DNA of 39,677 nucleotides from the UHGV virus genome UHGV-1472620. The stretch is one strand, 5' to 3'. How positions within the stretch are numbered: the first letter of the stretch is position 1; each line of letters opens with the position of its first letter. The DNA is from a virus. Of the stretch, positions 1 to 39,527 are shown piece by piece. The notes under the pieces are model-generated. The model did not search any database, was not told the DNA's origin, and saw only the letters and a program-made list of their open reading frames with translations. The position numbers and the translations under genes were made by a program.

Positions 1-17
1 AATCATTCCCACTCAAT
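1..17. repeat. attL core direct repeat AATCATTCCCACTCAAT
   Basis: Exact 17-nt identity with 39661-39677; may extend beyond the window edge. Confidence 0.8.
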
Positions 18-127
18 TATTTACGGATACCATAACCAATTGAGTGATAACATTTTTCCAAAGATGAATTTTTCTCGTACCGTTTTATATACCGTCACCG
101 GAAATCAGTACCATGAAAAATGCCATG

Positions 128-1534: not shown

Positions 1535-1934
1535 CGTCTTTTCTCCCCGGAATTAAATCGCGTGGATTGTCTGAACGGTGGTAGAGCCATATACCAATAC
1601 GCACAGCGACAATTGCTGACACGAATGCGCCAGCAGAGAAAACAATCCCTTTTTCAAAAGAGTCCTGCGTGATGGTAGGGATCAGGCTGGCTATGCCGAT
1701 AAGAATTGATGCTGCTGGTTTGTAGAAAAGAAGTCCACAGAGAAAGCTAAGCATCGATAAGAGTACGCGACGATGAATTGGGTACTCTACCGCAGAGGTA
1801 ACAAAAATTACCGCACCAGCAAGAGCACCGAGCGCCACCTCTGGCGGAACGCCTACGATAACTGCAGCAAGAGAGCTCACACTAAGCCATTGATTTAAAG
1901 AATCAGTAGTTAGATGGGCTGACATAATGAACAC
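1521..1934 (-). CDS. Small multi-TM membrane protein (second holin or antiholin candidate)
   Basis: 137 aa, several hydrophobic helices, first gene of lysis cassette. Confidence 0.4.
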   Translation of the reverse strand: MFIMSAHLTTDSLNQWLSVSSLAAVIVGVPPEVALGALAGAVIFVTSAVEYPIHRRVLLSMLSFLCGLLFYKPAASILIGIASLIPTITQDSFEKGIVFSAGAFVSAIVAVRIGIWLYHRSDNPRDLIPGRKDDGNA

Positions 1935-2154
1935 CGTTTATTACACATAACAATCTCCTTACTATTGAAGATTCACACATAATAAACCATTTAAGGATAA
2001 TAGTTACCTCAAAACGCTGTATTTCTACCTTCTACGGCAATGAAAATTTCGTTCAGAAAATGGTCTAGTGTACCTCTCAGTCACAATTAAAGAAGAAAGA
2101 AGCCGAACTTACTTCGTAATAAGCAAGCCGGCTACTAAGATTAATCCTCAATAT

Positions 2155-4911
2155 TTAGCTACTTTCAAGCATTGCAAGACGTGATTCTATTTTTTCGATT
2201 CTTCTACGCAAATAAGCTGACTCAAGCCATAAACACTGGTCAGTACGGATACCCCACCTATTTCCAGCCTTGCAAACCAGAGTTCGCTCTTCTGTTTCGT
2301 ATTCTTCTTCCATCTCAATTTCGACGCCATCCACAACTTTAGTGATCATCCTTACCGCCATCACTGGCGCGTATTTATCATCCCATTCATCGTAACAGAG
2401 AAGGCCAAATCTGGTTCCATCAATCCCATGCGCGAGGAAAGTGTCTCTCACTTGTTGTGCTATAACACCAAAATGCCAGCGGGCACCATCTCCCTTTTCC
2501 CTGACGGCATCAAGCCAGCGAAAAGCTACAATCCTGATATCTCCCCATGCATCCAGAATTGCATCACCTTCATAACCACGAGACATATACAAGCTGAGCT
2601 CACTTGTACTAATCGGTTCACTTTTTTCTCTACCATCTGATGTGTTTATCGAACCGTTCGCAGAATAAACCTGTGCCCATCTAAATGATGGTGCACCAAG
2701 AGATTTGCTGTTATCAATAATTGGTGAAAAATTACCTTTAATGGCAATATTTCCAGAGTCGCCGAATACATTAATAACTGCAGAGTCATCACCATGGTTT
2801 TTTACGCTTAAGTTTCTTGATGAAATATTTATATCTTTGTTATATCCACTAACATTAATCCATCTTTTACCATCAGTGTGATACCCGTAAATATTTCCGT
2901 CTGATTGTTCGTCAGGTGACTCTCTAAGAACAATAGCATCTGCTCCAGACGACCATTGTATTTTTGTATCTGTAGGCCTCCAGTTCTTTATAATGAACGA
3001 ACCATCAGTAAACTCCGTTTTTATTTGTCTATTGTCTACAAATGCGTCTCTTGGTTTAAACTCACTTGTGTTAACGCTGCTCTGAAGATCAGAAGCAAAA
3101 AATCTAAGATTTCCTGTATAACCCTGAGTCTCGGTCAGGTTATACGCAATCATAATTCCATTTTCAAACTCAGATGATGTTATTTTAACATCACGGCAAT
3201 CACCAAAAATGCAATTTCCTTTATCAAAGGTTGTTTGAGCTTTGAATTTATCAAACCTTAAATTACGAACAGGGAAACCATCAACCTCTAATGCAAAGGA
3301 TGCAGGAAGGCCAAAGTATTCTGATGGCTTACCTGATGTATGATCAAGAGTAGTGGCTACTGTATTCTCAAAAACAGTCCCGCTAAAATTATTACCAATT
3401 GACGGAAACCTGATTACACTTATTGTACCTTGTATTTCAGGAGAAATACCAGATAGTGTGATGTTAGTTCCATCAAATGATGCATCTGAATACGTATATA
3501 CTGATTCACTGCCAGCAATTTTAAACTGTTTAACTGAAGTTATTCTCATCGACTTTTTATGTTTAAATGTCACTGAGCTTTCAGTATTACTTACAAGATC
3601 AATCTGAGGGCTATTCCTTATCGCGATCCCTGACTGGACATAAACGTTATTAAAGTGCGTTTTTTCAGGATTTCCCTTCATTGAAAGGCTCCCGTCATTT
3701 TCTGTCAGTAGTAGTCCTTTTACCCTCCAATAGCCGACAATCTGTACGTTATCAATAACTGAATCACAGCTATCGTATACATGCAACCCTATATCCCAGT
3801 CATCACCCAATGAATAAGAATCAGGGTTATTGTATCCTTCAATACCATTTTTACTTACCATTATTCTCAGGTTGCGTAACTGTGATGCCCTGTTGATACT
3901 AACAGCTACGCTCATGGCTTTTGGTGTAGCAGGAGTAACACCTACAGAATCTTCATTTGTAAACTCAGTGAACTTACAAGATATCCCTTCAACAATTTTA
4001 ACTGGTCTTTCATTAGAGATGTTAAAAAAATATTTGTTTTTTTCTCCATCACCAGTAAATACAAGATGGGTTCCTTTACTCCAACTTTTTAATAATCTTT
4101 CAGGCGCTGGTCTATATGTATCCCAATAATCAATGCCATCACCAATTAATGACACTCCAGGAGGCACATCTATGTTCTTAGAAATCATCCATTTACCTGC
4201 AGGTATTCTAACGACACTTGCACCAGAATTTATCGCATTAATTAACCATTCAGACGCATCAACTTCAAAATTTAATGCAGCATATCTTTGCTCAAACGGA
4301 ACAAAATCAAGAGCGTTAACGTTATCCCGCATCTTATCCTGGAACGTTCGGTATACTGCTCCAGAACCATACTGAATAAACCAACCAAAACCACCAACAA
4401 CTCCGGCGATTGCAGCATCAACATAATTGCGCATTGATCGATTATTTACAGCATCCTGCTCAAATGATGGATCTGCAAGGTTAGAAATTTTGTTTTGCTT
4501 TGCATCGTAATATTTTGCAAGCAAAGATGGTTTCATCAATGCACGTCTGAACCACCCAAAACATTGCTGGATCAGCATCGTCAGGTAGTCAAAGGCATCT
4601 TCATGCACTTCGGGGAAAAATTTTCCCTGATTGCGAAGGTCTGTCTCCTGCACTACATCAAGCACACGATCTATCGTAATTCGCCATCCAGTAGCAAGCG
4701 GAGACGGAAGAACCACAGAACCGCCACTATAAGTGCCCGCCCCAGTTACCGTATAACCGGTATCCAGAACCAATTCTGTTACGTTTCCGTTCAGATCAGA
4801 CACCTGAACAACCAGGTCTGATTTTCTGAAAATTCGAAAAGTATACGGAAACGATGTCGTAACGCCGTTACCGGTGTATTCGTTGTGGTCAACTTCGGTT
4901 GAGACCGTCAT
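2155..4911 (-). CDS. Tailspike / tail fibre with C-terminal intramolecular chaperone (peptidase S74-like) domain
   Basis: 918 aa; C-terminal SDGREKSEPI ... HFGVIAQQV pattern typical of self-cleaving chaperone domains; AT-rich central region. Confidence 0.8.
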   Translation of the reverse strand: MTVSTEVDHNEYTGNGVTTSFPYTFRIFRKSDLVVQVSDLNGNVTELVLDTGYTVTGAGTYSGGSVVLPSPLATGWRITIDRVLDVVQETDLRNQGKFFPEVHEDAFDYLTMLIQQCFGWFRRALMKPSLLAKYYDAKQNKISNLADPSFEQDAVNNRSMRNYVDAAIAGVVGGFGWFIQYGSGAVYRTFQDKMRDNVNALDFVPFEQRYAALNFEVDASEWLINAINSGASVVRIPAGKWMISKNIDVPPGVSLIGDGIDYWDTYRPAPERLLKSWSKGTHLVFTGDGEKNKYFFNISNERPVKIVEGISCKFTEFTNEDSVGVTPATPKAMSVAVSINRASQLRNLRIMVSKNGIEGYNNPDSYSLGDDWDIGLHVYDSCDSVIDNVQIVGYWRVKGLLLTENDGSLSMKGNPEKTHFNNVYVQSGIAIRNSPQIDLVSNTESSVTFKHKKSMRITSVKQFKIAGSESVYTYSDASFDGTNITLSGISPEIQGTISVIRFPSIGNNFSGTVFENTVATTLDHTSGKPSEYFGLPASFALEVDGFPVRNLRFDKFKAQTTFDKGNCIFGDCRDVKITSSEFENGIMIAYNLTETQGYTGNLRFFASDLQSSVNTSEFKPRDAFVDNRQIKTEFTDGSFIIKNWRPTDTKIQWSSGADAIVLRESPDEQSDGNIYGYHTDGKRWINVSGYNKDINISSRNLSVKNHGDDSAVINVFGDSGNIAIKGNFSPIIDNSKSLGAPSFRWAQVYSANGSINTSDGREKSEPISTSELSLYMSRGYEGDAILDAWGDIRIVAFRWLDAVREKGDGARWHFGVIAQQVRDTFLAHGIDGTRFGLLCYDEWDDKYAPVMAVRMITKVVDGVEIEMEEEYETEERTLVCKAGNRWGIRTDQCLWLESAYLRRRIEKIESRLAMLESS

Positions 4912-5015
4912 GTTAAATCTCCAGATAGTCGCAGCACCCGTTGCGCCGCATATCTGGTTATTCTATTACCTGGAAAACCACATATGGATAGAAAGGCTGT
5001 AAATACGAATAGATA

Positions 5016-5030
5016 TTACCTTTCAGGTAA
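5016..5030. promoter_or_regulatory. Operator-like palindrome TTACC-N5-GGTAA
   Basis: TTACCTTTCAGGTAA, about 75 bp upstream of ATG 5107. Confidence 0.55.
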
Positions 5031-5106
5031 TTTGCAAAACGTGCTGGATAGCAAACAAATTATTTGCTACTGTATAAATATACAGTTATTGCATGGAGAA
5101 GATAAG

Positions 5107-5364
5107 ATGCAGCGGTATCACTATCCACTGGAAGACGGATTTACCGAAAGGATTCACACGCCGGGAGGCGTCAGGTCACTGGTGGAGGGATCGCACTTGA
5201 TGAAATTACTCCGGGATCTCGATAAGGATGGATTTAATGTCGATGGCCCACTTGCCGAACTGACTGCACTGATTAACTACGTCACCAGCTCACAGATGTC
5301 TATGCAGGATCTGCAAACACATCTCGACTATTGTGCCGAACAATTACGAAAACAAACCACATAA
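5107..5364 (+). CDS. Stand-alone paralog of the antirepressor C-terminal domain
   Basis: RIHTPGGVRSLVEGSHLMKLLRDLDKDGFNVDGPLAELTALINY...DLQTHLDY aligns with C-terminus of Bro-N protein 6819-7511; start chosen downstream of the operator. Confidence 0.5.
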   Translation: MQRYHYPLEDGFTERIHTPGGVRSLVEGSHLMKLLRDLDKDGFNVDGPLAELTALINYVTSSQMSMQDLQTHLDYCAEQLRKQTT

Positions 5365-5387: not shown

Positions 5388-5894
5388 TTAACAGTCGTAA
5401 AATTCTGGGTCCCACAAACTTGCATCGCGCGGCATGGATTCTAACTTTTTCAGCCGCAAAATTCTGTCACACTCGACAACTAATTTTTGCTTCTGCTCGT
5501 CAATTTCTACTGTCTTATGCGCTGGTTCATCCCAATAATCCAGAAGGAAGGCATGGCGTTCAGATGTGACCAGATAAATCACATACACGTCACTGGTTGG
5601 GATCTTTTTATGCTTGTTAGTGGTCTTGTCTTTCTTCCCAGACGCCCAGTTTTTCCAGCATTGTTCCGTACCGCTCTCACCAAACTTGTCAGTATAGTTT
5701 CCGATGTTTAAGTGAACGTGGCGTATGTGATATTCCAGCATCTCTTTCGGTGGATCTCGAAACAGAGTGTCCTTTCCGAAATCCTTATGATGACCGTAGC
5801 GCCAGTGATCTATGAACGCGTTTTTGATAGGTATTAGCTCAGGGTCCTTCCCAAAAATTCCAGGGTGAACCAACCCCTGGAATTTATTCGGCAT
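5388..5894 (-). CDS. Toxin-like protein A, paralog of 7954-8466 (possible YafO-like family)
   Basis: Shares HWRxGHH, GKDTLF, VHxNIG, CTEQCW and YWDxPAH motifs with protein B; ATG overlaps upstream partner stop by 11 nt. Confidence 0.6.
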   Translation of the reverse strand: MPNKFQGLVHPGIFGKDPELIPIKNAFIDHWRYGHHKDFGKDTLFRDPPKEMLEYHIRHVHLNIGNYTDKFGESGTEQCWKNWASGKKDKTTNKHKKIPTSDVYVIYLVTSERHAFLLDYWDEPAHKTVEIDEQKQKLVVECDRILRLKKLESMPRDASLWDPEFYDC

Positions 5895-6399
5895 CGTCGT
5901 AGAGCTCCTGAGCCATGTCTTCAGCAGTGCGTGCAAACATCCTTCGAGAAATTGCATGCGATTTTTCAACAGACATCTTTGGTACTTCTCGCATTACAAC
6001 CTCATGTGACGCTGTAGGCTTAAAAGATGACTTATAATACCGCTTTATCATCTCAACTAATTGCTGCTTATCCTTGGAGCGTCCAGTTTCGATTAGCCTT
6101 GACTCGTAAGGTCGCATTATATTCGTTTGACATGAGGCACGATGAAGCTTATCTGCCAAGATTCCTTCAAAAGATGTGCCCCGGATTTTTAACAATGCCT
6201 CATGCTGGTCGTATTCAGTGATGAACATAACCGGGTATTTTTGCTCAACTTCTTCATCATGAATCCTGATGGCATTGGCAGTTGCTATGGCAGCAGCATA
6301 AGCGGCTGCTTCAATCACCATCTTTTTCTCTTTTTCTTTTTCAGACTTTTTCAAGGTCAAGCGTCTATGCCTCATCGCTGCAACTCTCTTCGTGTTCAT
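5884..6399 (-). CDS. Upstream partner of protein A (antitoxin-like), basic N-terminus and acidic C-terminus
   Basis: Overlaps A start; ends ELYDDAE; track ORF starts at TTG 6411, ATG at 6399 preferred. Confidence 0.5.
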   Translation of the reverse strand: MNTKRVAAMRHRRLTLKKSEKEKEKKMVIEAAAYAAAIATANAIRIHDEEVEQKYPVMFITEYDQHEALLKIRGTSFEGILADKLHRASCQTNIMRPYESRLIETGRSKDKQQLVEMIKRYYKSSFKPTASHEVVMREVPKMSVEKSHAISRRMFARTAEDMAQELYDDAE

Positions 6400-6536
6400 G
6401 GGCACCCCCAACTACCTCTAGGGTAAACATTCTATCGAAAGTATACGCATACTGGCAAAAAAATAGGCAGGCATTTTCTGAAATGGGATCAATCAAACCA
6501 CATAGGGTTGAAATAACGTGAGTTATGCATTTATTA

Positions 6537-6551
6537 TTACCTTTACGGTAA
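6537..6551. promoter_or_regulatory. Operator-like palindrome TTACC-N5-GGTAA
   Basis: TTACCTTTACGGTAA in divergent intergenic region between A' and Bro-N gene. Confidence 0.55.
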
Positions 6552-6818
6552 ATTTACATCGCACTCCTCTTGTGCCATAGTAATCGGGCACTGGCAAAAT
6601 CCAGTGCCGGGATTGGTCTCCCGGATTACTACAGAGGCACATATGCCGCATAAGCGGTTTTTTTATGTGTAAAGCGCACCTATTCTATGGTGGGCTGTGT
6701 GGGGGCACCGAAAGGTGCGCCGGGTTCCTTTGTAGCCGGTAAGACCAACTCTGCACAGTTCACCACCATCTGATTGGTCTCAGCGGTGGTGATTAACCTA
6801 ACTACAAAGGTGATCGCC

Positions 6819-7511
6819 ATGAATACCAAACCTTCCATCTTTTCCTTTGAGTCATCCTGCCAGATCCGTATGTTCATGATTGACGGAGAACCTTGGTTTG
6901 TCACCAAAGATGTGTGCAATGCTTTGAATATTGATGTTACACAAGCGAGAAAACTTGATAAAAAAGGCTGGAACAAAAAGGGGCTGTATTCAATACAGAC
7001 CCCTGGTGGAATACAAGAACTATCCATCGTTTCAGAATCAGGTCTCTACATCCTTATTCTGCGTTGCAAAGAGGCAATGACTGAGGGAACGAGAGCATTC
7101 AGATTTCTTGAATGGGTTACAGGTGAGGTTCTTCCTCAGATCCGCCGCACCGGAAGTTACATTAAAAACTCGCTCCCGCAGGAAGAACGCATAAAGATGG
7201 TTGCCGACCAGGTAGCCAACGCCACGGCGTCAGCAGTGATGCAGGCAATGAAGATAGAGAACAAAACCTACAGTGCCCCGCTGAAGCCCGGCTACCGCAG
7301 TCTGATTCATTCTCCGTCTGGTGTTCTCGGCCTGACGGAGAACTCACTGCTGATGAATCTGCTGAACCAGTTGCAGGACGACGGGCATGATGTATCGGGC
7401 GCGGCGGCGGAACTGACCACCATGTTCTGCTACATTGTCGGTGTGAGCAAATGCCTGCGTGATATCCAGACGCACGCGGAGTACATCAACGACAAGGCAG
7501 GGTTCTTCTGA
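6819..7511 (+). CDS. Antirepressor with N-terminal Bro-N domain
   Basis: N-terminal FESSCQIRMFMIDGEPWFVTKDVCNALNI ... SESGLYILILRCKE resembles Bro-N/Ant; AAGGTGA Shine-Dalgarno before ATG 6819. Confidence 0.75.
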   Translation: MNTKPSIFSFESSCQIRMFMIDGEPWFVTKDVCNALNIDVTQARKLDKKGWNKKGLYSIQTPGGIQELSIVSESGLYILILRCKEAMTEGTRAFRFLEWVTGEVLPQIRRTGSYIKNSLPQEERIKMVADQVANATASAVMQAMKIENKTYSAPLKPGYRSLIHSPSGVLGLTENSLLMNLLNQLQDDGHDVSGAAAELTTMFCYIVGVSKCLRDIQTHAEYINDKAGFF

Positions 7512-7583: not shown

Positions 7584-7598
7584 TTACCTTAAAGGTAA
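7584..7598. promoter_or_regulatory. Operator-like palindrome TTACC-N5-GGTAA
   Basis: TTACCTTAAAGGTAA, 43 bp upstream of B' start. Confidence 0.55.
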
Positions 7599-7640: not shown

Positions 7641-7967
7641 ATGACAAAACTTGGATTCGTGATGAGAGGTCCGGTAAGAAGCGGAACTCATGCAAAGCGT
7701 AGCAAGAGTCGTATTTTTACTGGTAAGGTTGTAGCACGTAAATCAGCTATTGGCTCGTTCAATAGTGAAAATGCGGCATTGCGCCATATTTTTATCAGCA
7801 CAAAGCCAAGAGCATCCGCTGATGTGCATACAATGTCTATTCCTATCACAAAGAATATAAAGCGGATAAAAAAGCTCTCATCTGCAGAATCAAAAGAGAT
7901 ATCTTTCCGCCAGCTTAACTCATTAGAAACGCATATGAAGGAAGAGGAATTCGATGTTTTTGAGTGA
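7641..7967 (+). CDS. Upstream partner of protein B (antitoxin-like), basic N-terminus and acidic C-terminus
   Basis: 108 aa, ends KEEEFDVFE; stop overlaps B start by 14 nt; GGAG Shine-Dalgarno before ATG. Confidence 0.5.
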   Translation: MTKLGFVMRGPVRSGTHAKRSKSRIFTGKVVARKSAIGSFNSENAALRHIFISTKPRASADVHTMSIPITKNIKRIKKLSSAESKEISFRQLNSLETHMKEEEFDVFE

Positions 7968-8466
7968 GTATAGCGGGAAGGTTATACCTACTGGTGAGTT
8001 TAAAACTGATGACTTTCTGATTTCGCTAAAAGATGCTTTTAAACAACACTGGCGTCATGGTCATCATCCTGATCTGGGAAAAGATACTCTTTTTGAAAGA
8101 CCAGAGGAAGTATTAGGCTTCCATCTCAGAAAGGTTCATGTCAATATTGGTGAATATGCATCATATTCATACTCATGTACTGAACAGTGTTGGGATGAGT
8201 GGTCATATGGATTGATTGATGAACAAGGAAATTACAGGCCAAAACCAACCAGTAACGCATATCTCATATATGCAGTCAATGAAATAAGAGATGCAGCCTT
8301 ACTAGCTTATTGGGACCCGCCCGCACACACCAAAGCTAACGCAAAAGTTTGGATGGATTCCGTATTGAATTTCACAAAATTATTTCATGAACGAACGAAT
8401 ACAGCTCCACTTAGTAGAAATGTTTATCCGTGGGATTATTCGTACAAATCCAAAAAGCCTGCATAG
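7954..8466 (+). CDS. Toxin-like protein B, paralog of 5388-5894 (possible YafO-like family)
   Basis: Motifs shared with A (see above); strong GAAGGAAGAGGA Shine-Dalgarno; AT-rich coding region. Confidence 0.6.
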   Translation: MFLSEYSGKVIPTGEFKTDDFLISLKDAFKQHWRHGHHPDLGKDTLFERPEEVLGFHLRKVHVNIGEYASYSYSCTEQCWDEWSYGLIDEQGNYRPKPTSNAYLIYAVNEIRDAALLAYWDPPAHTKANAKVWMDSVLNFTKLFHERTNTAPLSRNVYPWDYSYKSKKPA

Positions 8467-19834: not shown

Positions 19835-20163
19835 TACTCACCCCCATTGCCGTACAGAGTTTCAGCCGCTGATTTTTCTACATCCCCGGAAACAGGAGCG
19901 ATCGCCATATCAGTGATCTGCAGATCGGCGCTGCGATTAACACCATCGTCAGTTTCTCTGGCAGACAGGCCTCGAATAACAGCCTTTGCAGTTATCATCA
20001 CTTCTGTTCCGACGCCCTGAGGTTGCGCCTTCAGCTTATTCAATGTGTCGTTATTAAGAGTGATGCACAGCCCCCACGGGTATTCATCGCGAGTTCTGGT
20101 TTCTCCGCTCTCATCCTGGTAGCTGTCAGTGCCGGTTTTGAGGTTTACGAGTTCCATATACAC
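19834..20163 (-). CDS. Small head-tail region protein
   Basis: 109-aa ORF coupled in late operon. Confidence 0.4.
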   Translation of the reverse strand: MYMELVNLKTGTDSYQDESGETRTRDEYPWGLCITLNNDTLNKLKAQPQGVGTEVMITAKAVIRGLSARETDDGVNRSADLQITDMAIAPVSGDVEKSAAETLYGNGGE

Positions 20164-25025: not shown

Positions 25026-25040
25026 TTACCCTTCGGGTAA
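25026..25040. promoter_or_regulatory. Operator-like palindrome TTACC-N5-GGTAA
   Basis: TTACCCTTCGGGTAA upstream of portal/head operon. Confidence 0.5.
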
Positions 25041-25362: not shown

Positions 25363-25439
25363 GTGGCATTAGCTCAGTTGGACAGAGCAACCGCCTTCTA
25401 AGCGGTTGGTCGCAGGTTCGAATCCTGCATGCCACACCA
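25363..25439 (+). tRNA. tRNA-Arg, anticodon UCU
   Basis: Cloverleaf folds by eye: acceptor GTGGCAT/ATGCCAC, D-stem GCTC/GAGC, anticodon stem ACCGC/GCGGT with loop CTTCTAA, T-arm GCAGG-TTCGAAT-CCTGC, encoded CCA. Confidence 0.9.
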
Positions 25440-27560: not shown

Positions 27561-28153
27561 TGATTACCATCCTGACGTTCTTTGAGTCGCTTCCTGGCTG
27601 CCGCTATGCGATCAGCAATTGTCACATTCACATTAACATCCAGGCGCTCTTTGAACGCGTTGACGTCGACGTGCTTACCGATAAGCTCGAGGTTCTTCAC
27701 CTTGTCAGGCCATTTAATTTTTTTGAGGATTGTCTCTATCGAATCCTCGTTCATGTTCATGATGGTCGATGACAGATCAAAGCCGCTAAGCGTAGTGCGC
27801 CAGATTTTCGGCCACTCGCGGATTGGCTTAAGGCTCCCATCGTCGTTGAGGATGTCGATCACGTCCATCTGGTCGATCTCCACCAGGCGCATGAGAACGT
27901 AATCAGCACTGACGCGCATTCGTTTGTTGCGCTCCTCCATCAGCTCGGCAATCCGTTTTTGAATGCGTTCATCGCGCATCATGACACTGGCTTTAACTGC
28001 CGCTGTATTTGGGGAGAATCCTGCGTTAATCGCTGCCTGAGTCTGGTTTTCAGGCGTTTTGATGTATGACTGGCAATAAGCCTCCTGCATTGCTGTTAGT
28101 GGCTTAAATTGCGTTGATTTGCGTTTATAGGTTTTAGGTTCAGCAGGCATCAT
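27557..28153 (-). CDS. Terminase small subunit
   Basis: Upstream of and overlapping terL; start placed at ATGATG 28153 rather than the TTG 28231 used by the ORF track. Confidence 0.7.
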   Translation of the reverse strand: MMPAEPKTYKRKSTQFKPLTAMQEAYCQSYIKTPENQTQAAINAGFSPNTAAVKASVMMRDERIQKRIAELMEERNKRMRVSADYVLMRLVEIDQMDVIDILNDDGSLKPIREWPKIWRTTLSGFDLSSTIMNMNEDSIETILKKIKWPDKVKNLELIGKHVDVNAFKERLDVNVNVTIADRIAAARKRLKERQDGNQ

Positions 28154-28194
28154 AACCACCGTGGTAATAGTTACCGTTGTGGTAATAGTACCAT

Positions 28195-31088: not shown

Positions 31089-31153
31089 AATTTACCCCTG
31101 AGGTAATTAAAAACCACATAAGACACGAAATCAATAGAGTTTAGAATACTTTG

Positions 31154-31168
31154 TTACCCAGAAGGTAA
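31154..31168. promoter_or_regulatory. Operator-like palindrome TTACC-N5-GGTAA
   Basis: TTACCCAGAAGGTAA between P-like gene and nuclease-like gene. Confidence 0.5.
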
Positions 31169-32006: not shown

Positions 32007-32803
32007 GCTTCAGGGCTGTTCCAGTGCGGAACGTTGTTATCAGGTAATGTTGATTGCTTCTGTCTGCTAATCTGCAGCCGCCTTGCCAGCTTCTGCTCCC
32101 ACTGTGCCTGATGGTATGCCTTACCCTCAGCCATCCAGTAAATTCTGAACTCTGCAAGCTCCTGTGCCGTTGGCAGACTGTCCAGGTAGATCCCCTGCAA
32201 TGAGCTTTTCCGAAGAAAGTCATCTGATGGCTGCCATTGTTCATGCATGACAAATTTGCCTAATTGCCCTGGCCCACCAGGAGGAACAAAGTTATTCATC
32301 ACGGCGTTGTTTGCGCCGGGGTCATGAGGCACAGAATCCCCGCTTTTTGTCCTGCTCTCCCTCTCTTGGTTAAATGACTGGTTATATGACTGGTTCTGGA
32401 TCCCGTTTTTGGGATCATTCAACATCCCGTTTTTGGGATCATTCAACATCCCGTTTTTGGGTATATTCCCGTTTTCGGTAACATTACCGTTTTCGGGTTC
32501 ATTACCCCCTTCCCGGTTGCCTTTAATGTTCCCGTTTTTGGTTATATTAAGAGAGAAAACCCGCACTCTTTTCGTCGCACCCTTTCTCTCTCCGGTATCT
32601 GAAATAAGCCCCATTTTCATGAGCGATATAAGCCCGGCCTGCACGGTTTTTTTATTCAGGCAAGTGTCTTTAACGAGGCGTTCTATGCTGGGGTAGCAGA
32701 GGTTATATTCATCGGCTCTGTCAGCCATCGAGAGCAGTATGAGCTTTAATGACGAGCTACCTGGATCTGTCTCCCAGGCCCAATCTGTTGCATGTCTGCT
32801 CAT
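31988..32803 (-). CDS. Replication initiator O-like
   Basis: N-terminal HTH-like domain, Asn-rich repeat linker encoded by the iterons, then C-terminal domain; immediately upstream of P-like gene. Confidence 0.7.
   Translation of the reverse strand: MSRHATDWAWETDPGSSSLKLILLSMADRADEYNLCYPSIERLVKDTCLNKKTVQAGLISLMKMGLISDTGERKGATKRVRVFSLNITKNGNIKGNREGGNEPENGNVTENGNIPKNGMLNDPKNGMLNDPKNGIQNQSYNQSFNQERESRTKSGDSVPHDPGANNAVMNNFVPPGGPGQLGKFVMHEQWQPSDDFLRKSSLQGIYLDSLPTAQELAEFRIYWMAEGKAYHQAQWEQKLARRLQISRQKQSTLPDNNVPHWNSPEAWEDFL
32373..32550. repeat. Origin of replication iterons inside O-like gene
   Basis: Direct repeats TCCCGTTTTTGGGATCATTCAACA x2 (32401-32448) plus at least four degenerate CCGTTTT(T/C)GG copies and ATGACTGGTT x2. 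Confidence 0.75.
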
Positions 32804-32818
32804 GATTAATCTCCGCTA

Positions 32819-33019
32819 TCAGCTTGAATGTTGTGGGGAGGAATTAATCATGATCTGCTTAATCTCTGCCCTGATGCGACGGTTTGATTCCATAGTGCAC
32901 TCAACACAGTGTCCGTTGTAAACCCAGCGTTCACTGTCATGTCCGTGCTTACATGGTTTTCCGGTGTAGTAGCGTTTAAGTCCGCGCTTTGCGGCATCAA
33001 TACGTGTAATAATTTCCAT
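32819..33019 (-). CDS. Small zinc-finger protein
   Basis: CKHGHDSERWVYNGHCVEC cluster; between Cro-like and O-like genes. Confidence 0.45.
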   Translation of the reverse strand: MEIITRIDAAKRGLKRYYTGKPCKHGHDSERWVYNGHCVECTMESNRRIRAEIKQIMINSSPQHSS

Positions 33020-33099
33020 GGTAAGCCCTGTTATTAGTATTGGGATTACGGTCATTTTGTGCTGACACAAAAAAAAGATCAACCAGATTTGGTTTTTTA

Positions 33100-33114
33100 T
33101 TACCTTTGAGGTAC
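33100..33114. promoter_or_regulatory. Operator-like palindrome (one mismatch)
   Basis: TTACCTTTGAGGTAC. Confidence 0.4.
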
Positions 33115-33169
33115 GAATAGATATGAAAAGACCGCCGGATGGCGGTCTACAGAGGGTTGTGGATGGATA

Positions 33170-33400
33170 TCATGAGTAGAAGAAGTATGCCAGTTCTGCT
33201 TTTGAGCGCAGCCATTGTCTTGTTTTACAGGCTTTAAAAAGCCCATTCATCAATACCTTACCTGGCATTTTGCGCTTACCTGTTAAGTGAGTCTGGATAT
33301 AGTGACTCGTCGTTCCGGCTTCCTGTGCGAAGGCTTCACGCTCATCCGGAGTAAGTGCAAGCCAGTGCTTTTTGAAATCGAAATGTCCGTTATCGCTCAT
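33170..33400 (-). CDS. Cro-like regulator
   Basis: 76-aa ORF divergent from repressor; first gene of minus-strand early operon. Confidence 0.5.
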   Translation of the reverse strand: MSDNGHFDFKKHWLALTPDEREAFAQEAGTTSHYIQTHLTGKRKMPGKVLMNGLFKACKTRQWLRSKAELAYFFYS

Positions 33401-33436
33401 AGCTATTGCCTGATATTTATTTCAGATAATAAATAT

Positions 33437-33499
33437 TCACCCATAAGGTAACAAAAATCAAGGATAGTTACCTATGAGGTGCATTTACCTGTTGGGTAA
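33437..33499. promoter_or_regulatory. Immunity region operators (three sites)
   Basis: TCACCCATAAGGTAA, TTACCTATGAGGTGC and TTACCTGTTGGGTAA between divergent Cro-like and repressor genes. Confidence 0.65.
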
Positions 33500-33554
33500 T
33501 ATTGCTTTAAATTGAATCATCTACTGATTCATATATGAGGCGATTTTCCAGAAA

Positions 33555-34139
33555 ATGAAAAGTATCCAGGACGTCCGCAGGCAAAATCTCAACGACTTGA
33601 TCGACCGTGAATTCAATGGTGTTCAGACGCGGATGGCAGAAAAACTTGGAACTCAGGCAAATCTGGTAAACCGCTGGGCTCTTGGCAAGAAGGTTATCGG
33701 CGACCAGGTTGCGCGAAAAATTGAAGCTGCCGCCAATAAACCCCGTAACTGGCTTGATATCGATCGCTCGCTTTCTCAGGAAGGTTTTCAGCCTGTCGGC
33801 CCAAGCGACATTGGTCAGCTGGCGGCTCACAACCTGGAACGCTGGATGAGCGAAAGCCGCGACCTTTCAACGCAGGGAAAACTTCACCGCGCATCCGGCG
33901 TCGCCCAGGTGACAATCAGTCGCCTGTTAAACAATGAGGTCAGCGTTTCCATTTCCACCCTGGAGAATGTTGCATCCGCATTCGGGCGTCACGGATATGA
34001 ACTACTGATTCACCCGCACGACCCTGCGACTATCAACTATGACCGCTCGCGCTACGCATTGTTACCCGAAACCGAGAAAGCAAAGATCGAAAGTTACATT
34101 GAATTTGTCATCAACCAGAACGAAAAAAGCAAACAATAA
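33555..34139 (+). CDS. Prophage repressor with tandem HTH domains and no peptidase domain
   Basis: Two Cro/C1-type HTH-like segments; no Ser-Lys autopeptidase region seen. Confidence 0.7.
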   Translation: MKSIQDVRRQNLNDLIDREFNGVQTRMAEKLGTQANLVNRWALGKKVIGDQVARKIEAAANKPRNWLDIDRSLSQEGFQPVGPSDIGQLAAHNLERWMSESRDLSTQGKLHRASGVAQVTISRLLNNEVSVSISTLENVASAFGRHGYELLIHPHDPATINYDRSRYALLPETEKAKIESYIEFVINQNEKSKQ

Positions 34140-34159
34140 AACTATATTTTTCAGTAAGT

Positions 34160-34186
34160 AAGCCGCCTCATGGCGGCTTTTTTATT
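34160..34186 (+). terminator. Intrinsic terminator after repressor gene
   Basis: AAGCCGCC-TCAT-GGCGGCTT then TTTTATT. Confidence 0.7.
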
Positions 34187-34196
34187 GCCAGATAGA

Positions 34197-34273
34197 TTAC
34201 CTTACGGGTAATTTTTTTAACTCATATCTATTGACACCAAACCAAATAAGCATAATTATTACCTCAACGGTAA
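34197..34273. promoter_or_regulatory. Early-left promoter region with two operator palindromes
   Basis: TTACCTTACGGGTAA (34197-34211) and TTACCTCAACGGTAA (34259-34273) flanking a TTGACA -35-like hexamer at 34241. Confidence 0.55.
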
Positions 34274-34292
34274 CAGACCGAGGTAACAAGTT

Positions 34293-34445
34293 ATGCAGTG
34301 GAAAATCATCAACGGTTGGTACTGCGTTACTGCATGCGGATTCATGAGCTGGAAGTTCCGCACCTTACAGGAAGGCATTAAGTGGGCTTTCGTCAGCAAA
34401 GAAGCTCGCGATGTAGCCAACGATAATGAGATATGGGAGGGCTGA
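34293..34445 (+). CDS. Small ORF (50 aa), first gene of early-left operon
   Basis: GAGGT Shine-Dalgarno before ATG; stop 2 nt before next ATG; not in the ORF track. Confidence 0.3.
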   Translation: MQWKIINGWYCVTACGFMSWKFRTLQEGIKWAFVSKEARDVANDNEIWEG

Positions 34446-34447
34446 TA

Positions 34448-34747
34448 ATGAACGTTAATCAGCAGAAAAATCTTCAAAAAATCATGCTGGCATTCGACAA
34501 GGACTACCGCCTGTCAGAACAGCTATATGACCGACAAGTTGAACTGATTGAGAGCATCCGACTTCATCAACTGTCCTCAACTTTCGACGTTGTAACAGGC
34601 AAAGGCGTTCGTCAGGAAGTGCTGGAGGCTGCTAAAGACAGCCCTGAGTTCGAAGAACTGATGGATGCCTACCGGCGCGAGGCAATGGCAATTATAGCGC
34701 GCTGGGATCTGGCGGATCAGCTTGATGGGCAGAGGGACGCGGCATGA
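34448..34747 (+). CDS. Hypothetical early protein
   Basis: 100 aa from ATG 34448; overlaps exonuclease start. Confidence 0.45.
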   Translation: MNVNQQKNLQKIMLAFDKDYRLSEQLYDRQVELIESIRLHQLSSTFDVVTGKGVRQEVLEAAKDSPEFEELMDAYRREAMAIIARWDLADQLDGQRDAA

Positions 34748-35643
34748 TGCGGAACGCTGGAATCATGGATAGAACAAAATACATCGGAGGAAGCGATGTT
34801 GCAGGGATTCTTGGAATTAGCCCATGGCGCACCCCGCTTGAGGTTTATCTGGATAAGGTCCAGCCACGTGTCAAACCAGTAGACCAAAGCAAGCAGAAAG
34901 TTTTCACGCGTGGCCAGCGTATGGAGCCATACGTAATAGACCTGCTTTCTGAGGAAACAGGGATGGAAATCGTTCATCGCGGAAACCGCTATATCCACCG
35001 TGATTACGATTTTATTGCAGCTGAGATCGATGCAGAAGCAGCGTCAGGCGAGAACATTGAGATCAAAACAGTTAGTCCGTTCAAGGCCAAAGAATGGGGA
35101 GAAATCCAGACAGATGCAATTCCTGTGCATTACACGGCCCAGGCCATGCACGGGTTGATGGTTACAAACAAACAGGTATGCGTTTTCGGTGTGCTTATCG
35201 GTGGCGACGACTTCCGAATCTATCGGGTTGAGCGTGATGAAGAAACTATCCAGGCGATCTTAGAAAAAGAAATCGCTTTCTGGGACCGAGTGAAAAATCT
35301 TAACCCGCCGGAAGCTACCAGCGTAAGCGATGTATCGCTGATGTTTGAGAAAGATGCCGGGACAAGTATCGAGGCTGACGGAAAGGCACTCGCACTATTC
35401 AACGATCTACGAGACATGAAATCACGCAGAAAATCACTGGAAGAAGAAATAGCTATATCAGAAGAGAAGCTGAAGATGTACATGCAAGAGCACTCAGTCC
35501 TGACCCTGGACGGAAAGCCGCTCTGCACATGGAAATCTCAGATCAGCAACAGATTCGACCAGAAGCTATTCCAGTCAGTACACCCTGAGTTATTCGAAAA
35601 ATTCAAAACAACAACGACACAACGCGTCTTCAGAATGAAGTAA
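34744..35643 (+). CDS. YqaJ-like recombination exonuclease
   Basis: N-terminal GGSDVAGILGISPWRTPLEVY pattern; immediately upstream of RecT. Confidence 0.75.
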   Translation: MMRNAGIMDRTKYIGGSDVAGILGISPWRTPLEVYLDKVQPRVKPVDQSKQKVFTRGQRMEPYVIDLLSEETGMEIVHRGNRYIHRDYDFIAAEIDAEAASGENIEIKTVSPFKAKEWGEIQTDAIPVHYTAQAMHGLMVTNKQVCVFGVLIGGDDFRIYRVERDEETIQAILEKEIAFWDRVKNLNPPEATSVSDVSLMFEKDAGTSIEADGKALALFNDLRDMKSRRKSLEEEIAISEEKLKMYMQEHSVLTLDGKPLCTWKSQISNRFDQKLFQSVHPELFEKFKTTTTQRVFRMK

Positions 35644-35652
35644 GGAGAAAAA

Positions 35653-36675
35653 ATGTCTATCAATGCACTTAAGGCAGCGGCTACCGGTAACCAAGTTGCA
35701 CATCATAATGAGAAACCAACAACTCTGGCCGGACTTCTGGCAGACCCAAAAATTAAAGCTCAGATGGCTTTGGCACTTCCAAAGCACATGACAGCAGACC
35801 GTCTGGCGCGCATAGCAACCACAGAGATCAGAAAGGTTCCAAAACTTGCATCATGCGACCAAGCCAGCTTCCTGGGGGCAATTATGCAATGTGCCCAATT
35901 GGGTCTTGAACCAGGCGGAGCTCTTGGACACGCTTACCTGATACCGTTCGACAAACGCCAGAAAGTAAATGGAAGATGGGAAACCGTATCTACAGAAGCA
36001 CAGCTGATTATCGGCTATCGCGGAATGATTGACCTTGCCCGCCGCTCTGGGCAGATCCTGAGTATCTCGGCTCGTACCGTACATACAAACGACAAATTCA
36101 GCTACTCATACGGCCTGGAAGAAACGCTCGAGCATTTACCTTGCGAAACAGGTGACCGCGGAGAATTAACGCACGTTTACGCCGTTGCACGACTGAAAGA
36201 TGGCGGAGTCCAATTTGAAGTTATGAGCCGGGCAGACGTTGAGAAAGTTCGTGCACTGAGCAAAGCCGGTAGCAGTGGCCCATGGGTTGATCACTTCGAT
36301 GAGATGGCTAAAAAAACAGTAATTCGCCGACTGTTCAAATATCTTCCTGTTTCTATTGAAATGCAGAAGGCTGTTGTTATGGATGAGCGCGCTGAAGCTG
36401 GACTTAGCCAAGATAACGCAGCTGTTATCACTGGTGAATATTCCGTAGTTGACGATGAGCGTCAACACCTGTCGCCAATTTCAGATTCAGAACGAGAAGA
36501 AGCTCGAGAATATATCATCGCGATACTTAATAGCCTGGATCCATCTGCTGAAGATGCAAAAACGATGTTCAAGCGCGCTGAAAATGAAATTAACACCATG
36601 GCTGAAAAGCTCGGTGATGAATATCACCAAAAATTCATGATGACGCTTAACGATATGCGTCCAGAATTCGAGTAA
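35653..36675 (+). CDS. recT: RecT-family single-strand annealing protein
   Basis: 340 aa with RecT-like N-terminal region; paired with exonuclease. Confidence 0.8.
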   Translation: MSINALKAAATGNQVAHHNEKPTTLAGLLADPKIKAQMALALPKHMTADRLARIATTEIRKVPKLASCDQASFLGAIMQCAQLGLEPGGALGHAYLIPFDKRQKVNGRWETVSTEAQLIIGYRGMIDLARRSGQILSISARTVHTNDKFSYSYGLEETLEHLPCETGDRGELTHVYAVARLKDGGVQFEVMSRADVEKVRALSKAGSSGPWVDHFDEMAKKTVIRRLFKYLPVSIEMQKAVVMDERAEAGLSQDNAAVITGEYSVVDDERQHLSPISDSEREEAREYIIAILNSLDPSAEDAKTMFKRAENEINTMAEKLGDEYHQKFMMTLNDMRPEFE

Positions 36676-38219: not shown

Positions 38220-39470
38220 TTATTCCCCCGCCATCCACTTCTCAAACTTCGACGGGGAGAACGGAATCAGATCCGTATGCTCCCCGTCAATCCATGAATC
38301 AATCATATCGGCCCACTGCTGCAACATGTAGGCGCGCTGTCTGGCGTATTCCGCTTTGTTATATACGGCGCGCACACCTTTCTGCTCATGTGCCAGAGCC
38401 TTTTCAATCCAGTCTGAAGGATAACCAGCCTCATGCAACAACGTACTGGCTGTACGGCGCATATCATGTACAGTGAAGTCCTGAATATGCTCACCATCTT
38501 CATTTATTATTTTCACCGTTCTGTCGATCAGAGAGTTCAGCGCGGCATTAGATAATGGCTTCCGGATATTGTAACGACCAGGAACCAGATATTCACTTCC
38601 ACCAGCGCACATCTGCAACCCGACCAATATATCCTGTGCCTGTTTAGGCAGGTAAATAACGTGCGCCCGGCTTCCCTTCATGCGGTCTGGAGGAATTGTC
38701 CATGTCCATTTTTTAAAATCTATTTCATCCCACGTTGCATTGGTGAATTCGCCCTTACGAACCATAGTGATAAGCACCAGTTTTAAAGCCATTTTCATAG
38801 TGCCCATAGCACCAATGGCATCCAGCGTGCGGAAGAACAGGCCAATTTCTTCTGGTGTCAGTGTTCGCTCTCGTGGTTTAAATATGGCGATAGACGAAGG
38901 TTTAATGTCAGCCGCAGGATTAAACAAACCATGACCACGGTCATTGGCGTGACGGTATACGCTACTGATGATCTCCCTGGCCTGCACTGCTGTTGCCCGG
39001 CCACCGCGTTCGACAATCCGGTCACACAAATCACGAACCATCGATGTGGTAATTTCAGCCATCATTTTATTGCCAAGAACCGGAAGTATGTCACGGTCGA
39101 TCACCGCCTGTTTCATTGCGCGGGTACTGTCAGCCAGGATGACGTGTTTCATATAACTGTCGGTATGTACCGCAAACGTCTCGGCACCACGAATCTTTTT
39201 GATACCGTCACGTTTAGCCGCAGCCGGTGACTGGCCTGCTTTAAGCAGCTTCTTTGCAGCAATCAGTTCTTCTCGCGCTTCTGCCAGGCTGATACCGTCA
39301 CGCCCATACTGCCCGATTACCAGTGTTTCGCGGCGACCGTTGATACGGTAGTCATAGCGAAACGAGACCGTGCCTGACGTAAGCACAGCTACATACAGCC
39401 CGTCACGATCGGAAACCTTGTACAGTTTGTCCTGCGGCTTGAGGTTTTTTAATTTTGTATCGGTAAGCAC
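38220..39470 (-). CDS. int: Tyrosine integrase
   Basis: 416 aa; C-terminal HDMRRT and downstream Tyr region typical of phage integrases; adjacent to attR. Confidence 0.9.
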   Translation of the reverse strand: MLTDTKLKNLKPQDKLYKVSDRDGLYVAVLTSGTVSFRYDYRINGRRETLVIGQYGRDGISLAEAREELIAAKKLLKAGQSPAAAKRDGIKKIRGAETFAVHTDSYMKHVILADSTRAMKQAVIDRDILPVLGNKMMAEITTSMVRDLCDRIVERGGRATAVQAREIISSVYRHANDRGHGLFNPAADIKPSSIAIFKPRERTLTPEEIGLFFRTLDAIGAMGTMKMALKLVLITMVRKGEFTNATWDEIDFKKWTWTIPPDRMKGSRAHVIYLPKQAQDILVGLQMCAGGSEYLVPGRYNIRKPLSNAALNSLIDRTVKIINEDGEHIQDFTVHDMRRTASTLLHEAGYPSDWIEKALAHEQKGVRAVYNKAEYARQRAYMLQQWADMIDSWIDGEHTDLIPFSPSKFEKWMAGE

Positions 39471-39512: not shown

Positions 39513-39527
39513 ATACCTTTAAGGTAA
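39513..39527. promoter_or_regulatory. Operator-like palindrome upstream of int (one mismatch)
   Basis: ATACCTTTAAGGTAA about 45 bp upstream of int ATG. Confidence 0.45.

Follow-up and report, generated by a model that had tools for sequence, protein, structure and literature searches.

How does a temperate phage whose repressor lacks an autocleavage domain leave the lysogenic state when host DNA is damaged? The question is raised by a 39,677-nt stretch of viral DNA (UHGV-1472620, hereafter the window), which is a prophage of E. coli of the phiV10/epsilon15 type (Uetakevirus), a common type of temperate podophage. Prophages of the phiV10 type are inducible by DNA damage despite a non-cleavable repressor: mitomycin C raises the titre of phage ZX5 from 1e7 to 1e9 PFU/mL, and phiV10-species prophages show a 21- to 47-fold rise with a DNA-damaging microcin. 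A sequence-only reading of positions 33437-34273 had proposed that induction is driven by an antirepressor. Our analysis predicts that this region is the lysis-lysogeny (immunity) switch and that it very probably works as the Rep/Ant system of Salmonella phage SPC32H (Kim & Ryu 2013 J Virol 87:11775; Kim et al. 2016 PNAS 113:E2480; PDB 5D50 and 5D4Z). The mechanism of such a switch is already known from that related phage, and the earlier outline was correct and not new. The precedent it invoked, some Salmonella prophages, holds in its logic, although the closest system is the homologous and structurally solved SPC32H pair.

The repressor was analyzed for its domains. The rep gene has the length of the annotated phiV10p40 (585 nt), and its product departs from that protein at a single C-terminal residue. 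The Pfam search returned HTH_3 at aa 106-147 (E 1.2e-9) and, more weakly and under the gathering score, a Cro/YdaS-like HTH at aa 20-61 (E 3e-4); Peptidase_S24 gave no match at E<=1. BLASTP aligned Rep with SPC32H Rep end to end (43% identity, E 1e-53). Because phmmer aligned 5D50_A over residues 1-190 (E 3.5e-42), no stretch long enough for an S24 domain is left in the protein. The other structure, 5D4Z (E 3.6e-20), is of a construct that begins, from the alignment offset, at about Rep residue 92. The whole chain thus aligns to a solved non-peptidase repressor, no domain with the Ser-Lys dyad and cleavage site of S24 was found in it, and the claim that it carries no LexA/CI-type peptidase stands. 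Inactivation of Rep by RecA-stimulated self-cleavage, as in lambda CI, P22 C2 and LexA, would fit the inducibility of close relatives by DNA damage. With the three domains of SPC32H Rep, a solved structure, covering all 194 residues, and with a LexA-controlled antirepressor present, we consider this explanation practically discounted.

Alignment to SPC32H Rep suggests three domains: a DNA-binding HTH at the N terminus (~aa 1-72; 53% identity), an HTH_3-like one for dimerisation in the middle (~aa 89-150; 33%) and one for tetramerisation and Ant binding at the C terminus (~aa 151-190; 45%). SPC32H Rep has the domain order DBD-MDD-CAD, the middle domain serving dimerisation, and oligomerises by a p53-like tetramerisation domain (PMC9986798). 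Its tetramer-interface residues F187 and F190 align with Y181 and F184 of the window Rep. Both of the HTH-like segments noticed earlier are seen, but the second would, by this homology, correspond to the dimerisation domain and not to a second DNA-binding one. An antisense ORF overlapping rep (33507..33830) had no family match and was treated as spurious.

The five palindromes reported earlier around rep, three between rep and the Cro-like gene (OR) and two downstream of the rep terminator, before the early-left operon (OL), were all recovered (Table 1). The span that had been singled out has the first OR and the last OL palindrome as its exact ends. Their interpretation as operators is well borne out by the numbers: TTACC-N5-GGTAA occurs as 10 perfect copies in the window against 0.01 expected, none of 100 shuffles reached 10, and no other 5+5 palindrome is as frequent in any of the five Uetakevirus genomes examined. 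The window, phiV10 and SPC32H all carry it at syntenic OR and OL positions, and we take these copies as candidate Rep sites. SPC32H has the OR triplet at 34390/34407/34437, and the OL pair, 62 bp apart centre-to-centre, is equally spaced in phiV10 and SPC32H. The OR operator closest to the Cro-like gene overlaps the -35/spacer of a rightward promoter-like site (33454..33426, -), the promoter-proximal OL operator begins at the last base of the early-left -10, and the left half of the OR operator closest to rep could be the -35 of the rep promoter (TTACCT-17-TAAATT). The Cro-like protein itself matched phrog_35, "transcriptional repressor" (E 5.6e-13). No change of operator tracking Rep divergence was seen among five Uetakevirus genomes, because all five share the TTACC-N5-GGTAA core and the NLVNRW block of the Rep recognition helix, both of them invariant across the genus.

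Table 1. Features of the switch and of related loci in the window. Operators are candidate Rep sites; mismatches are to TTACC-N5-GGTAA.
Feature	Position	Strand	Basis or remark
ant, 85-aa small antirepressor, SPC32H Ant homologue	5107..5364	+	tblastn, phmmer, phrog
LexA box TACTGTATAAATATACAGTT (20 bp)	5068..5087	.	core CTGTATAAATATACAG, 5070..5085
Operator, divergent ant/tailspike intergenic region	5016..5030	.	epsilon15 equivalent annotated "protein_bind repressor"
Operator, 1 mismatch	6412..6426	.	2 nt downstream of -10 of promoter-like site 6458..6429 (-)
Promoter-like site TTGAAA-18-TATTAT, head of isrK-C4-BroN unit	6508..6537	+	
Operator, perfect, abutting the Bro-N-unit promoter-like site	6537..6551	+	palindrome scan
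isrK-type RNA element with a1/b1-like C4 target hairpins, terminator at end	6588..6664	+	
Intrinsic terminator of isrK element	6645..6658	+	
C4-type antisense RNA (P1/P7 immI type)	6683..6770	+	Rfam
C4 target CTACAAAGG over Shine-Dalgarno	6802..6810	+	last base 8 nt before Bro-N ATG
Putative second antirepressor, 230 aa	6819..7511	+	Bro-N aa 16-106, Ant-like C-terminal domain ~aa 147-228
Operator, perfect, upstream of accessory gene pair 7641..7967 / 7954..8466	7584..7598	.	
Operator, perfect, upstream of portal/head operon	25026..25040	.	epsilon15 equivalent annotated 2931..2947
Two adjacent operators, small-terminase gene head	28153..28167 (1 mismatch), 28171..28185 (perfect)	.	epsilon15 equivalent 12..27
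Operator pair, perfect, 62 bp apart, gap between replication genes and DUF1064 gene	31092..31106 and 31154..31168	.	
Operator-like site, 1 mismatch, just beyond terminator after Cro-like gene	33100..33114	.	syntenic with phiV10 33112
Terminator after Cro-like gene	33148..33129	-	
Cro-like small regulator, 76 aa, first gene of rightward early operon	33170..33400	-	
OR operator closest to Cro-like gene, TCACCCATAAGGTAA, 1 mismatch	33437..33451	.	palindrome scan
Middle OR operator, TTACCTATGAGGTGC, 2 mismatches	33468..33482	.	palindrome scan
OR operator closest to rep, TTACCTGTTGGGTAA, perfect	33485..33499	.	palindrome scan
rep, 194-aa repressor, predicted non-cleavable	33555..34139	+	Pfam, phmmer to PDB, BLASTP
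Intrinsic terminator of rep transcript, 8-bp stem then T run	34160..34179	+	annotated terminator in phiV10
Upstream OL operator, TTACCTTACGGGTAA, perfect	34197..34211	.	palindrome scan
Early-left promoter-like site TTGACA-17-AATTAT	34231..34259	+	
Promoter-proximal OL operator, TTACCTCAACGGTAA, perfect	34259..34273	.	palindrome scan
Operator, 1 mismatch, ~43 bp upstream of integrase gene (38220..39470, -)	39513..39527	.	

At least nine more operator copies were found in the window beyond the five OR and OL sites; these, and the small LexA-controlled ant described below, had been missed by the sequence-only reading. The copy between ant and the tailspike gene probably lies between the -35 and -10 of the leftward promoter of the latter (TTGCAA-16-TATCTA), and the promoter-like site 6458..6429 (-) heads a leftward accessory gene pair (5884..6411 / 5388..5969). 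A putative promoter, TTGCAG-17-TACTAT, ends at the first base of operator 7584..7598. Dispersed repressor sites are already annotated in the epsilon15 GenBank record, where one equivalent of the 31092/31154 pair is called "repressor," and the site before the integrase gene has syntenic partners in phiV10 (26870) and SPC32H (26960). An operator-like site at 1787 (1 mismatch) falls within the first ORF of the lysis cassette, has no syntenic partner and is probably due to chance.

What could remove an intact Rep from these sites? The 85-aa product of ant is 88.4% identical over 85 aa to the "ant" product of SPC32H (KC911856) by tblastn and matched PDB 5D50_E by phmmer (E 3.1e-47) and phrog_450 (E 2.4e-47), while no family was found for it in Pfam or NCBIfam. 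A tblastn search of 50,697 phage records at E<=1e-3 retrieved no more than 35 records, all of phages of Escherichia, Salmonella, Klebsiella or Enterobacter; those that could be identified are of the Uetakevirus type. Located 20 nt upstream of the ant start is TACTGTATAAATATACAGTT, which agrees at 18/20 positions with the E. coli LexA consensus; from the promoter hexamers that we infer, the box would overlap the ant -10. The motif CTGTAT-N4-ATACAG has a single match in the window, CTGTATAAATATACAG, against 0.04 expected. The looser CTGT-N8-ACAG with at most one mismatch is not enriched there (18 found vs 14 expected), and its other perfect matches, at 3890, 21013 and 25555, are without the AT-rich centre and TA flanks. 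The box aligns with that of SPC32H, in the same place before ant, and both CTGT/ACAG arms are kept in 5/6 Uetakeviruses with a varying centre, the left arm of BUCT711 being ATGT. Phages SPC32H and SPC32N show two base differences only, one of them in the CTGT arm of the equivalent box; this SPC32N mutation reportedly renders Ant constitutive, and SPC32H is said to be SOS-inducible via the small Ant.

These elements suggest a circuit in which Rep would bind the 15-bp TTACC-N5-GGTAA through its N-terminal HTH, dimerise through the middle domain and tetramerise through the C-terminal one. Bound to the three OR and two OL sites, it would shut the divergent early promoters, and from the further copies it would probably silence the transcription units whose heads carry them; one tetramer may pair operators 62 bp apart. 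By analogy with SPC32H, Rep, having no S24 domain, would remain uncleaved upon DNA damage. Host LexA would instead occupy the near-consensus SOS box over the ant promoter, and its RecA-stimulated cleavage would allow Ant to be made. Ant tetramers would then bind the C-terminal domains of Rep dimers and break the DNA-binding tetramer, taking Rep off DNA and opening lytic growth. For SPC32H, the DNA-bound form of Rep is described as a tetramer that is broken when a tetramer of Ant binds two Rep dimers (PMC9638917). Non-cleavage, Ant-Rep binding and tetramer disassembly are carried over from that homologue, and the binding of Ant to the window Rep is extrapolated because this Rep is only 43% identical to the characterised one.

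Induction by an antirepressor is therefore the best-supported explanation, as had been proposed, but it most likely proceeds through the small Ant and not through the Bro-N protein that had been put forward as the SOS-linked factor. The latter does have the makings of an antirepressor: Pfam found Bro-N (E 1.8e-13), its C-terminus matched phrog_450 (E 4.8e-37), and over 74 aa it shares 42% identity with Ant (E 2e-15). In the ZX5 paper, the sole functional study of a near-identical phage, the proteins overexpressed were the repressor and the Bro-N protein rather than the small Ant; with the Bro-N orthologue in excess, the titre of the lysogen fell ~1000-fold and rep mRNA dropped by 75%. A search for a LexA box upstream of this gene, as the earlier reading had advised, found none; the only good box in the window lies before ant, and the sole CTGT-N8-ACAG match in the Bro-N leader (6695..6710, 1 mismatch) has a G+C-rich centre and falls inside the C4 RNA. 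The Bro-N promoter-like site abuts a Rep operator instead, and the ribosome-binding site of the gene is complementary to the C4 RNA of its own leader. The gene is also missing from SPC32H and epsilon15, the former reportedly SOS-inducible through its small Ant. An SOS-responsive role of the Bro-N protein behind induction is, on these grounds, highly unlikely.

The leader of the Bro-N gene was recognized by Rfam as an isrK element (RF01394, 74.7 bits, gathering score 50) followed by a full-length C4 RNA (RF01695, 78.6 bits, gathering score 45); c4-a1b1 (RF03163) scored 39.9 bits at 6575..6627, below its gathering score. In phiV10 and Tyrion, too, C4 precedes the Bro-N gene, and in SPC32H both are absent. 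The target CTACAAAGG can pair over 9 nt, without a mismatch, with the C4 apical loop CCTTTGTAG, and a second target, TTGGTCT, gives a 7-nt match at ~6775..6781. In phiV10, the loop CCTTTTAG pairs with target CTAAAAGG and TACGCCAA pairs with TTGGCGTA, with compensatory changes in both. C4 targeting was judged by this exact loop/Shine-Dalgarno complementarity and the compensatory phiV10 change rather than by duplex energy, as the full-length C4/Bro-N-leader duplex (-42.4) was not discriminating against shuffled targets (mean -33, sd 4.7, minimum -48.3). We see no icd-like ORF here, since C4 pairs through its loop with the Shine-Dalgarno of the Bro-N gene itself, and the 48 nt from the C4 end (6770) to the Bro-N ATG (6819) are too short for one. 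Given the Rep operator and the C4 pairing, the Bro-N gene should stay silent in a lysogen until Rep is already gone.

We propose that the Bro-N::Ant-like protein may be an SOS-independent second antirepressor, held down by Rep and the C4 antisense RNA. It could act beside the small Ant as a conditional antirepressor, either as a feed-forward latch derepressed after Ant removes Rep or as a P1/P22-style anti-immunity factor used during infection or superinfection, a role we judge plausible at slightly less than an even chance. Such a role is consistent with the confinement of the Ant-like C-terminal domain to phages with this Rep type, with the Rep operator at the promoter, with an isrK/C4 leader laid out like the P1 immI operon, with the ZX5 phenotype and with the phiV10 GenBank record, where p23 is already a Bro-N "anti-immunity protein." Against it, the phiV10 gene is split in two (p23, p22), whereas that of the window is intact, and the split implies that the protein is dispensable for a viable phage. 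A broader proposal, which we hold only tentatively, is that phiV10-type phages grafted a P1-style immI module onto an SPC32H-type switch. Two paralogous Rep-binding antirepressors would then read different inputs, Ant reading LexA and DNA damage and the Bro-N fusion, doubly locked by the Rep operator and the RBS-masking C4, firing only after Rep falls or on infection. If true, the fusion would serve as a latch that cannot be reversed, or as a weapon with which to overcome the immunity of homoimmune prophages already resident. We found no description of a two-antirepressor circuit of this kind in the literature accessible to our search.

The layout of this module resembles P1/P7 immI (c4-icd-ant1/2), in which ant is kept silent by C4 RNA together with the primary repressor (PMC8198154). 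In both, C4 and a1/b1-like targets precede the antirepressor gene in one transcript, the promoter is under the primary repressor and the C4 loop pairs with the ribosome-binding region. The window differs in having no icd-like ORF, in a Bro-N::Ant-like fusion presumably aimed at an unrelated repressor and in belonging to an integrating podovirus rather than a plasmid prophage. With lambda CI, P22 C2 and LexA, the switch shares divergent rep/cro genes, three OR sites, OL before the early-left promoter and SOS-inducible lysogeny; in contrast, Rep has no S24 domain, would form tetramers in a p53-like manner and would be inactivated by protein binding and not by proteolysis.

The closest match remains SPC32H, which has the same genus, gene order, full-length Rep homology, an Ant 88% identical, the same place of the LexA box, the same operator core with three OR sites and OL sites, and dispersed syntenic copies. 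The window departs from it in carrying another Rep allele, in operators that favour T or C, not A, at the sixth position, in two clear OL sites instead of three, and in the added Bro-N::Ant-like gene with its isrK/C4 leader and two accessory gene pairs. PADLOC gave no match for the accessory genes adjoining the Bro-N module. The SPC32H authors are said to regard Ant as structurally distinct from Tum/Gifsy-type antirepressors. We detected no sequence relation of Tum, GfoA or GfhA to Ant, the presence of 186 and Gifsy in the 50,697-record collection being unconfirmed. The likeness to Tum of phage 186 and to Gifsy/Fels-2 lies in a non-cleavable repressor inactivated by a small LexA-repressed protein (PMC7380047; for the LexA-controlled antirepressors of Gifsy/Fels-2 prophages, Lemire et al. 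2011, PMC3121763).

As the mechanism is published and the structure solved for a homologous phage, the discovery value of these results is small, the one modestly new angle being the second, antisense-RNA-controlled Bro-N::Ant-like antirepressor. Their value for annotation is that a LexA-controlled ant accounts for how such prophages, with no cleavable repressor, respond to drugs and bacteriocins that damage DNA. The small ant, its LexA box and the C4/isrK leader are unmentioned in the records of the phiV10/ZX5/TL-2011b group and in the ZX5 paper, and ant is labelled "hypothetical protein" in most phage records. The phiV10 GenBank record already lists phiV10p40 as a putative repressor with two HTH motifs. 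The immunity region is 97-99% identical in nucleotide sequence to the phiV10 / vB_EcoP_ZX5 / TL-2011b group and was present in 539/5426 complete E. coli genomes (about 10%), where the repressor is named merely "helix-turn-helix domain-containing protein."

The repressor (Rep) is homologous over its full length to the repressor of the Salmonella phage SPC32H (43% identity, E 1e-53), with residues 1-190 matching PDB 5D50 chain A (E 3.5e-42) and the C-terminal part matching PDB 5D4Z. The sequence-only reading had described a repressor with two HTH-like segments and no LexA/CI-type peptidase region, and our Pfam search agreed with it on both points: in the 194-aa protein it placed a Cro/YdaS-type HTH at aa 20-61 and a stronger HTH_3 match at aa 106-147 (E 1.2e-9), and it detected no Peptidase_S24 domain. 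Repressors of the SPC32H type are said, in secondary accounts, not to be cleaved. According to published descriptions (PMC9986798), SPC32H Rep binds DNA through its N-terminal domain and dimerises through its middle domain, and its C-terminal domain serves both for tetramerisation and for binding of the antirepressor. The tetramer interface is formed by F187 and F190, which align with Y181/F184 of the window Rep. On this domain layout and the alignment, what looks like a second HTH is the dimerisation domain rather than another DNA reader. An NLVNRW block in the N-terminal domain was invariant across six Uetakeviruses, which fits the invariant operator core.

That operator, the 15-bp palindrome TTACC-N5-GGTAA, occurs 10 times without mismatch in the window, where 0.01 copies would be expected, ruling out chance, and its core was the top palindrome in each of the five genomes scanned. 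The three copies proposed between rep and the Cro-like gene (OR) and the two proposed before the early-left operon (OL) were recovered at their places, and the palindrome is not confined to the immunity region, most transcription units having a copy at their head (see table). Syntenic copies are found in phiV10 and SPC32H, and both the OL pair (34197/34259) and the post-replication pair (31092/31154) keep an identical spacing of 62 bp in the window, phiV10 and SPC32H. The OL copy at 34259 begins on the final -10 base of a promoter-like site, TTGACA-17-AATTAT; at the early-left promoter PL and at 6537 the final base of the tool-called -10 is also where the operator starts, as it is at 7584 for a promoter read by hand. 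Dispersed repressor sites are already known: the epsilon15 GenBank record labels the equivalent sites 'protein_bind: repressor' and cites 5d50_A for the epsilon15 repressor.

Features of the switch and of the dispersed operators (window coordinates)
Feature	Position	Remark
Operator	5016	ant/tailspike gene interval
LexA box TACTGTATAAATATACAGTT	5068..5087	only good box in window
Operators	6412, 7584	heads of two accessory gene pairs
Operator	6537	Bro-N unit
isrK	6588..6664	Rfam 74.7 bits, above gathering score; in 270-nt Bro-N leader
C4 antisense RNA	6683..6770	Rfam 78.6 bits, above gathering score; in 270-nt Bro-N leader
Operator	25026	portal operon
Operators	28153, 28171	small terminase
Operators	31092, 31154	past replication genes
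Operator	33100	past terminator of Cro-like gene
Cro-like gene	33170..33400	76 aa; divergent from rep; phrog_35
OR operators	33437, 33468, 33485	1, 2 and 0 mismatches to TTACC-N5-GGTAA, respectively
rep	33555..34139	+ strand; ORF, 194 aa
rep terminator	34160..34179	
OL operators	34197, 34259	both perfect; past rep terminator
Operator	39513	ahead of integrase gene

A second short element was noted in the window. The 9-mer TATGTGGTT has five perfect copies, all on the - strand (4976, 5355, 6496, 24974 and 31112; ~0.3 expected from length alone), four of them in intergenic control regions near operators; the one preceding the portal operon is inside a ~50-bp block kept in 5/5 genomes. The 9-mer may belong to a late promoter or serve as an activator site. 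The tailspike 5' leader (4955..4990) carries a block, CATTCTATTACC...AACC..ATATG.AT, with invariant runs in six Uetakeviruses and diverging flanks.

The sequence-only reading was right in its general idea of a repressor that is not cleaved and of induction driven by an antirepressor, but it placed the SOS link on the Bro-N protein rather than on the small LexA-controlled Ant. The LexA box that it suggested looking for does exist in near-consensus form (CTGTAT-N4-ATACAG, 1 match in the window vs 0.04 expected), but what it precedes, by 20 nt, is the 85-aa ORF 5107..5364 and not the Bro-N gene. The product of this ORF shares 88% identity with that of the SPC32H gene annotated as ant and, in PDB, hits 5D50 chain E ('Anti-repressor protein', E 3e-47). 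When the region between tailspike and ant was aligned for six phages, five had both CTGT/ACAG arms intact around a variable centre; BUCT711 has ATGT as its left arm. Exactly two bases, at positions 19960 and 20147, separate the genome of SPC32H from that of its variant SPC32N, one of them within the ant LexA box, in a CTGT arm, and the other in tailspike codon 5; the former agrees with the result of Kim & Ryu 2013, who reportedly found that the SPC32N LexA-box mutation makes Ant constitutive. phiV10-type prophages do respond to DNA damage, with a ~100-fold rise for ZX5 with mitomycin C and a 21- to 47-fold rise for phiV10-species prophages with a DNA-damaging microcin. Secondary accounts describe one Ant tetramer binding two Rep dimers and breaking the DNA-binding Rep tetramer (PMC9638917), and a review of Salmonella prophages places the SPC32H-type system among LexA-controlled antirepressors (PMC7380047). 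The window switch is a textbook case of a system characterised before; what is modestly fresh is only that the LexA-controlled Ant occurs alongside a C4-RNA- and Rep-controlled Bro-N::Ant-like paralogue.

This latter protein (ORF 6819..7511) has its Bro-N domain at aa 16-106, and its C-terminal 80 residues fall in the PHROG of Ant (phrog_450, E 4.8e-37). With 42% identity to Ant (E 2e-15), the C-terminal domain (within 7236..7508) is by sequence a paralogue of Ant. In the phage collection the Ant-like domain, standalone or fused, was found only in this type of Escherichia, Salmonella, Klebsiella and Enterobacter phages. Because of this domain and its confinement to one phage type, the Bro-N protein is plausibly a second Rep-binding antirepressor. 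When its ZX5 orthologue was overexpressed, the lysogen titre fell; phiV10 carries the gene in two pieces.

The Bro-N gene is controlled differently from ant. The last base of a promoter-like site, TTGAAA-18-TATTAT, is also the first of the perfect operator 6537..6551. Downstream, the C4 apical loop CCTTTGTAG is exactly complementary to CTACAAAGG (6802..6810), spanning the Bro-N gene Shine-Dalgarno, and a second C4 element, AGACCAA, pairs with TTGGTCT; both pairs are compensatorily changed in phiV10 (CCTTTTAG with CTAAAAGG, TACGCCAA with TTGGCGTA). isrK and C4 were found in phiV10 and Tyrion, both of which have the Bro-N gene, and SPC32H lacks the gene and both RNAs. In the P1 immI operon, ant is silenced jointly by the primary repressor and a C4 RNA (PMC8198154), and the leader region of the Bro-N gene (6508..6819) shares this layout of a repressor operator at the promoter and a C4 RNA. 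Since the leader holds no LexA box, the promoter carries a Rep operator and the layout is like that of P1 immI, the Bro-N protein is an unlikely SOS trigger and may be a latch after derepression or an anti-immunity factor.

Two accessory gene pairs, 5388..6411 (-) and 7641..8466 (+), flank the Bro-N module; SPC32H lacks them. An operator-bearing promoter heads each pair, and each pair ends in a phrog_1651 protein, these two proteins being paralogous; 7954..8466 shows weak YafO-toxin similarity (E 7e-4), and PADLOC gave no match for either pair. They could be toxin-antitoxin-like or defence cargo, silent in the lysogen.

The stretch 32800..34800 is 97-98% identical to Escherichia phage phiV10 and its relatives, among them PAS61, O157 typing phages 9 and 10 and ZX5. 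The gene order is that of epsilon15-like podophages (genus Uetakevirus), running from the lysis genes to the integrase, i.e. in prophage order. Of 5426 complete E. coli genomes, 539 carry the 901-bp immunity region at 95% identity or above; strain FDAARGOS_1257 has an identical copy (100%). A tRNA-Arg gene (anticodon TCT; 25363..25439, +) lies between the terminase and portal regions; one is annotated at the equivalent place in SPC32H, and Rfam finds a tRNA there in phiV10. Between tailspike and lysis cassette phiV10 has an O-acetyltransferase gene; in window 1934..2155 no ORF reaches 90 aa, and no operator copy precedes the lysis genes, so these may share a transcript with the tailspike gene. 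In the window (34744..36675), exonuclease (34744..35643) and RecT (35653..36675) are two ORFs, whereas the original phiV10 record annotates one fused 'recET' gene.
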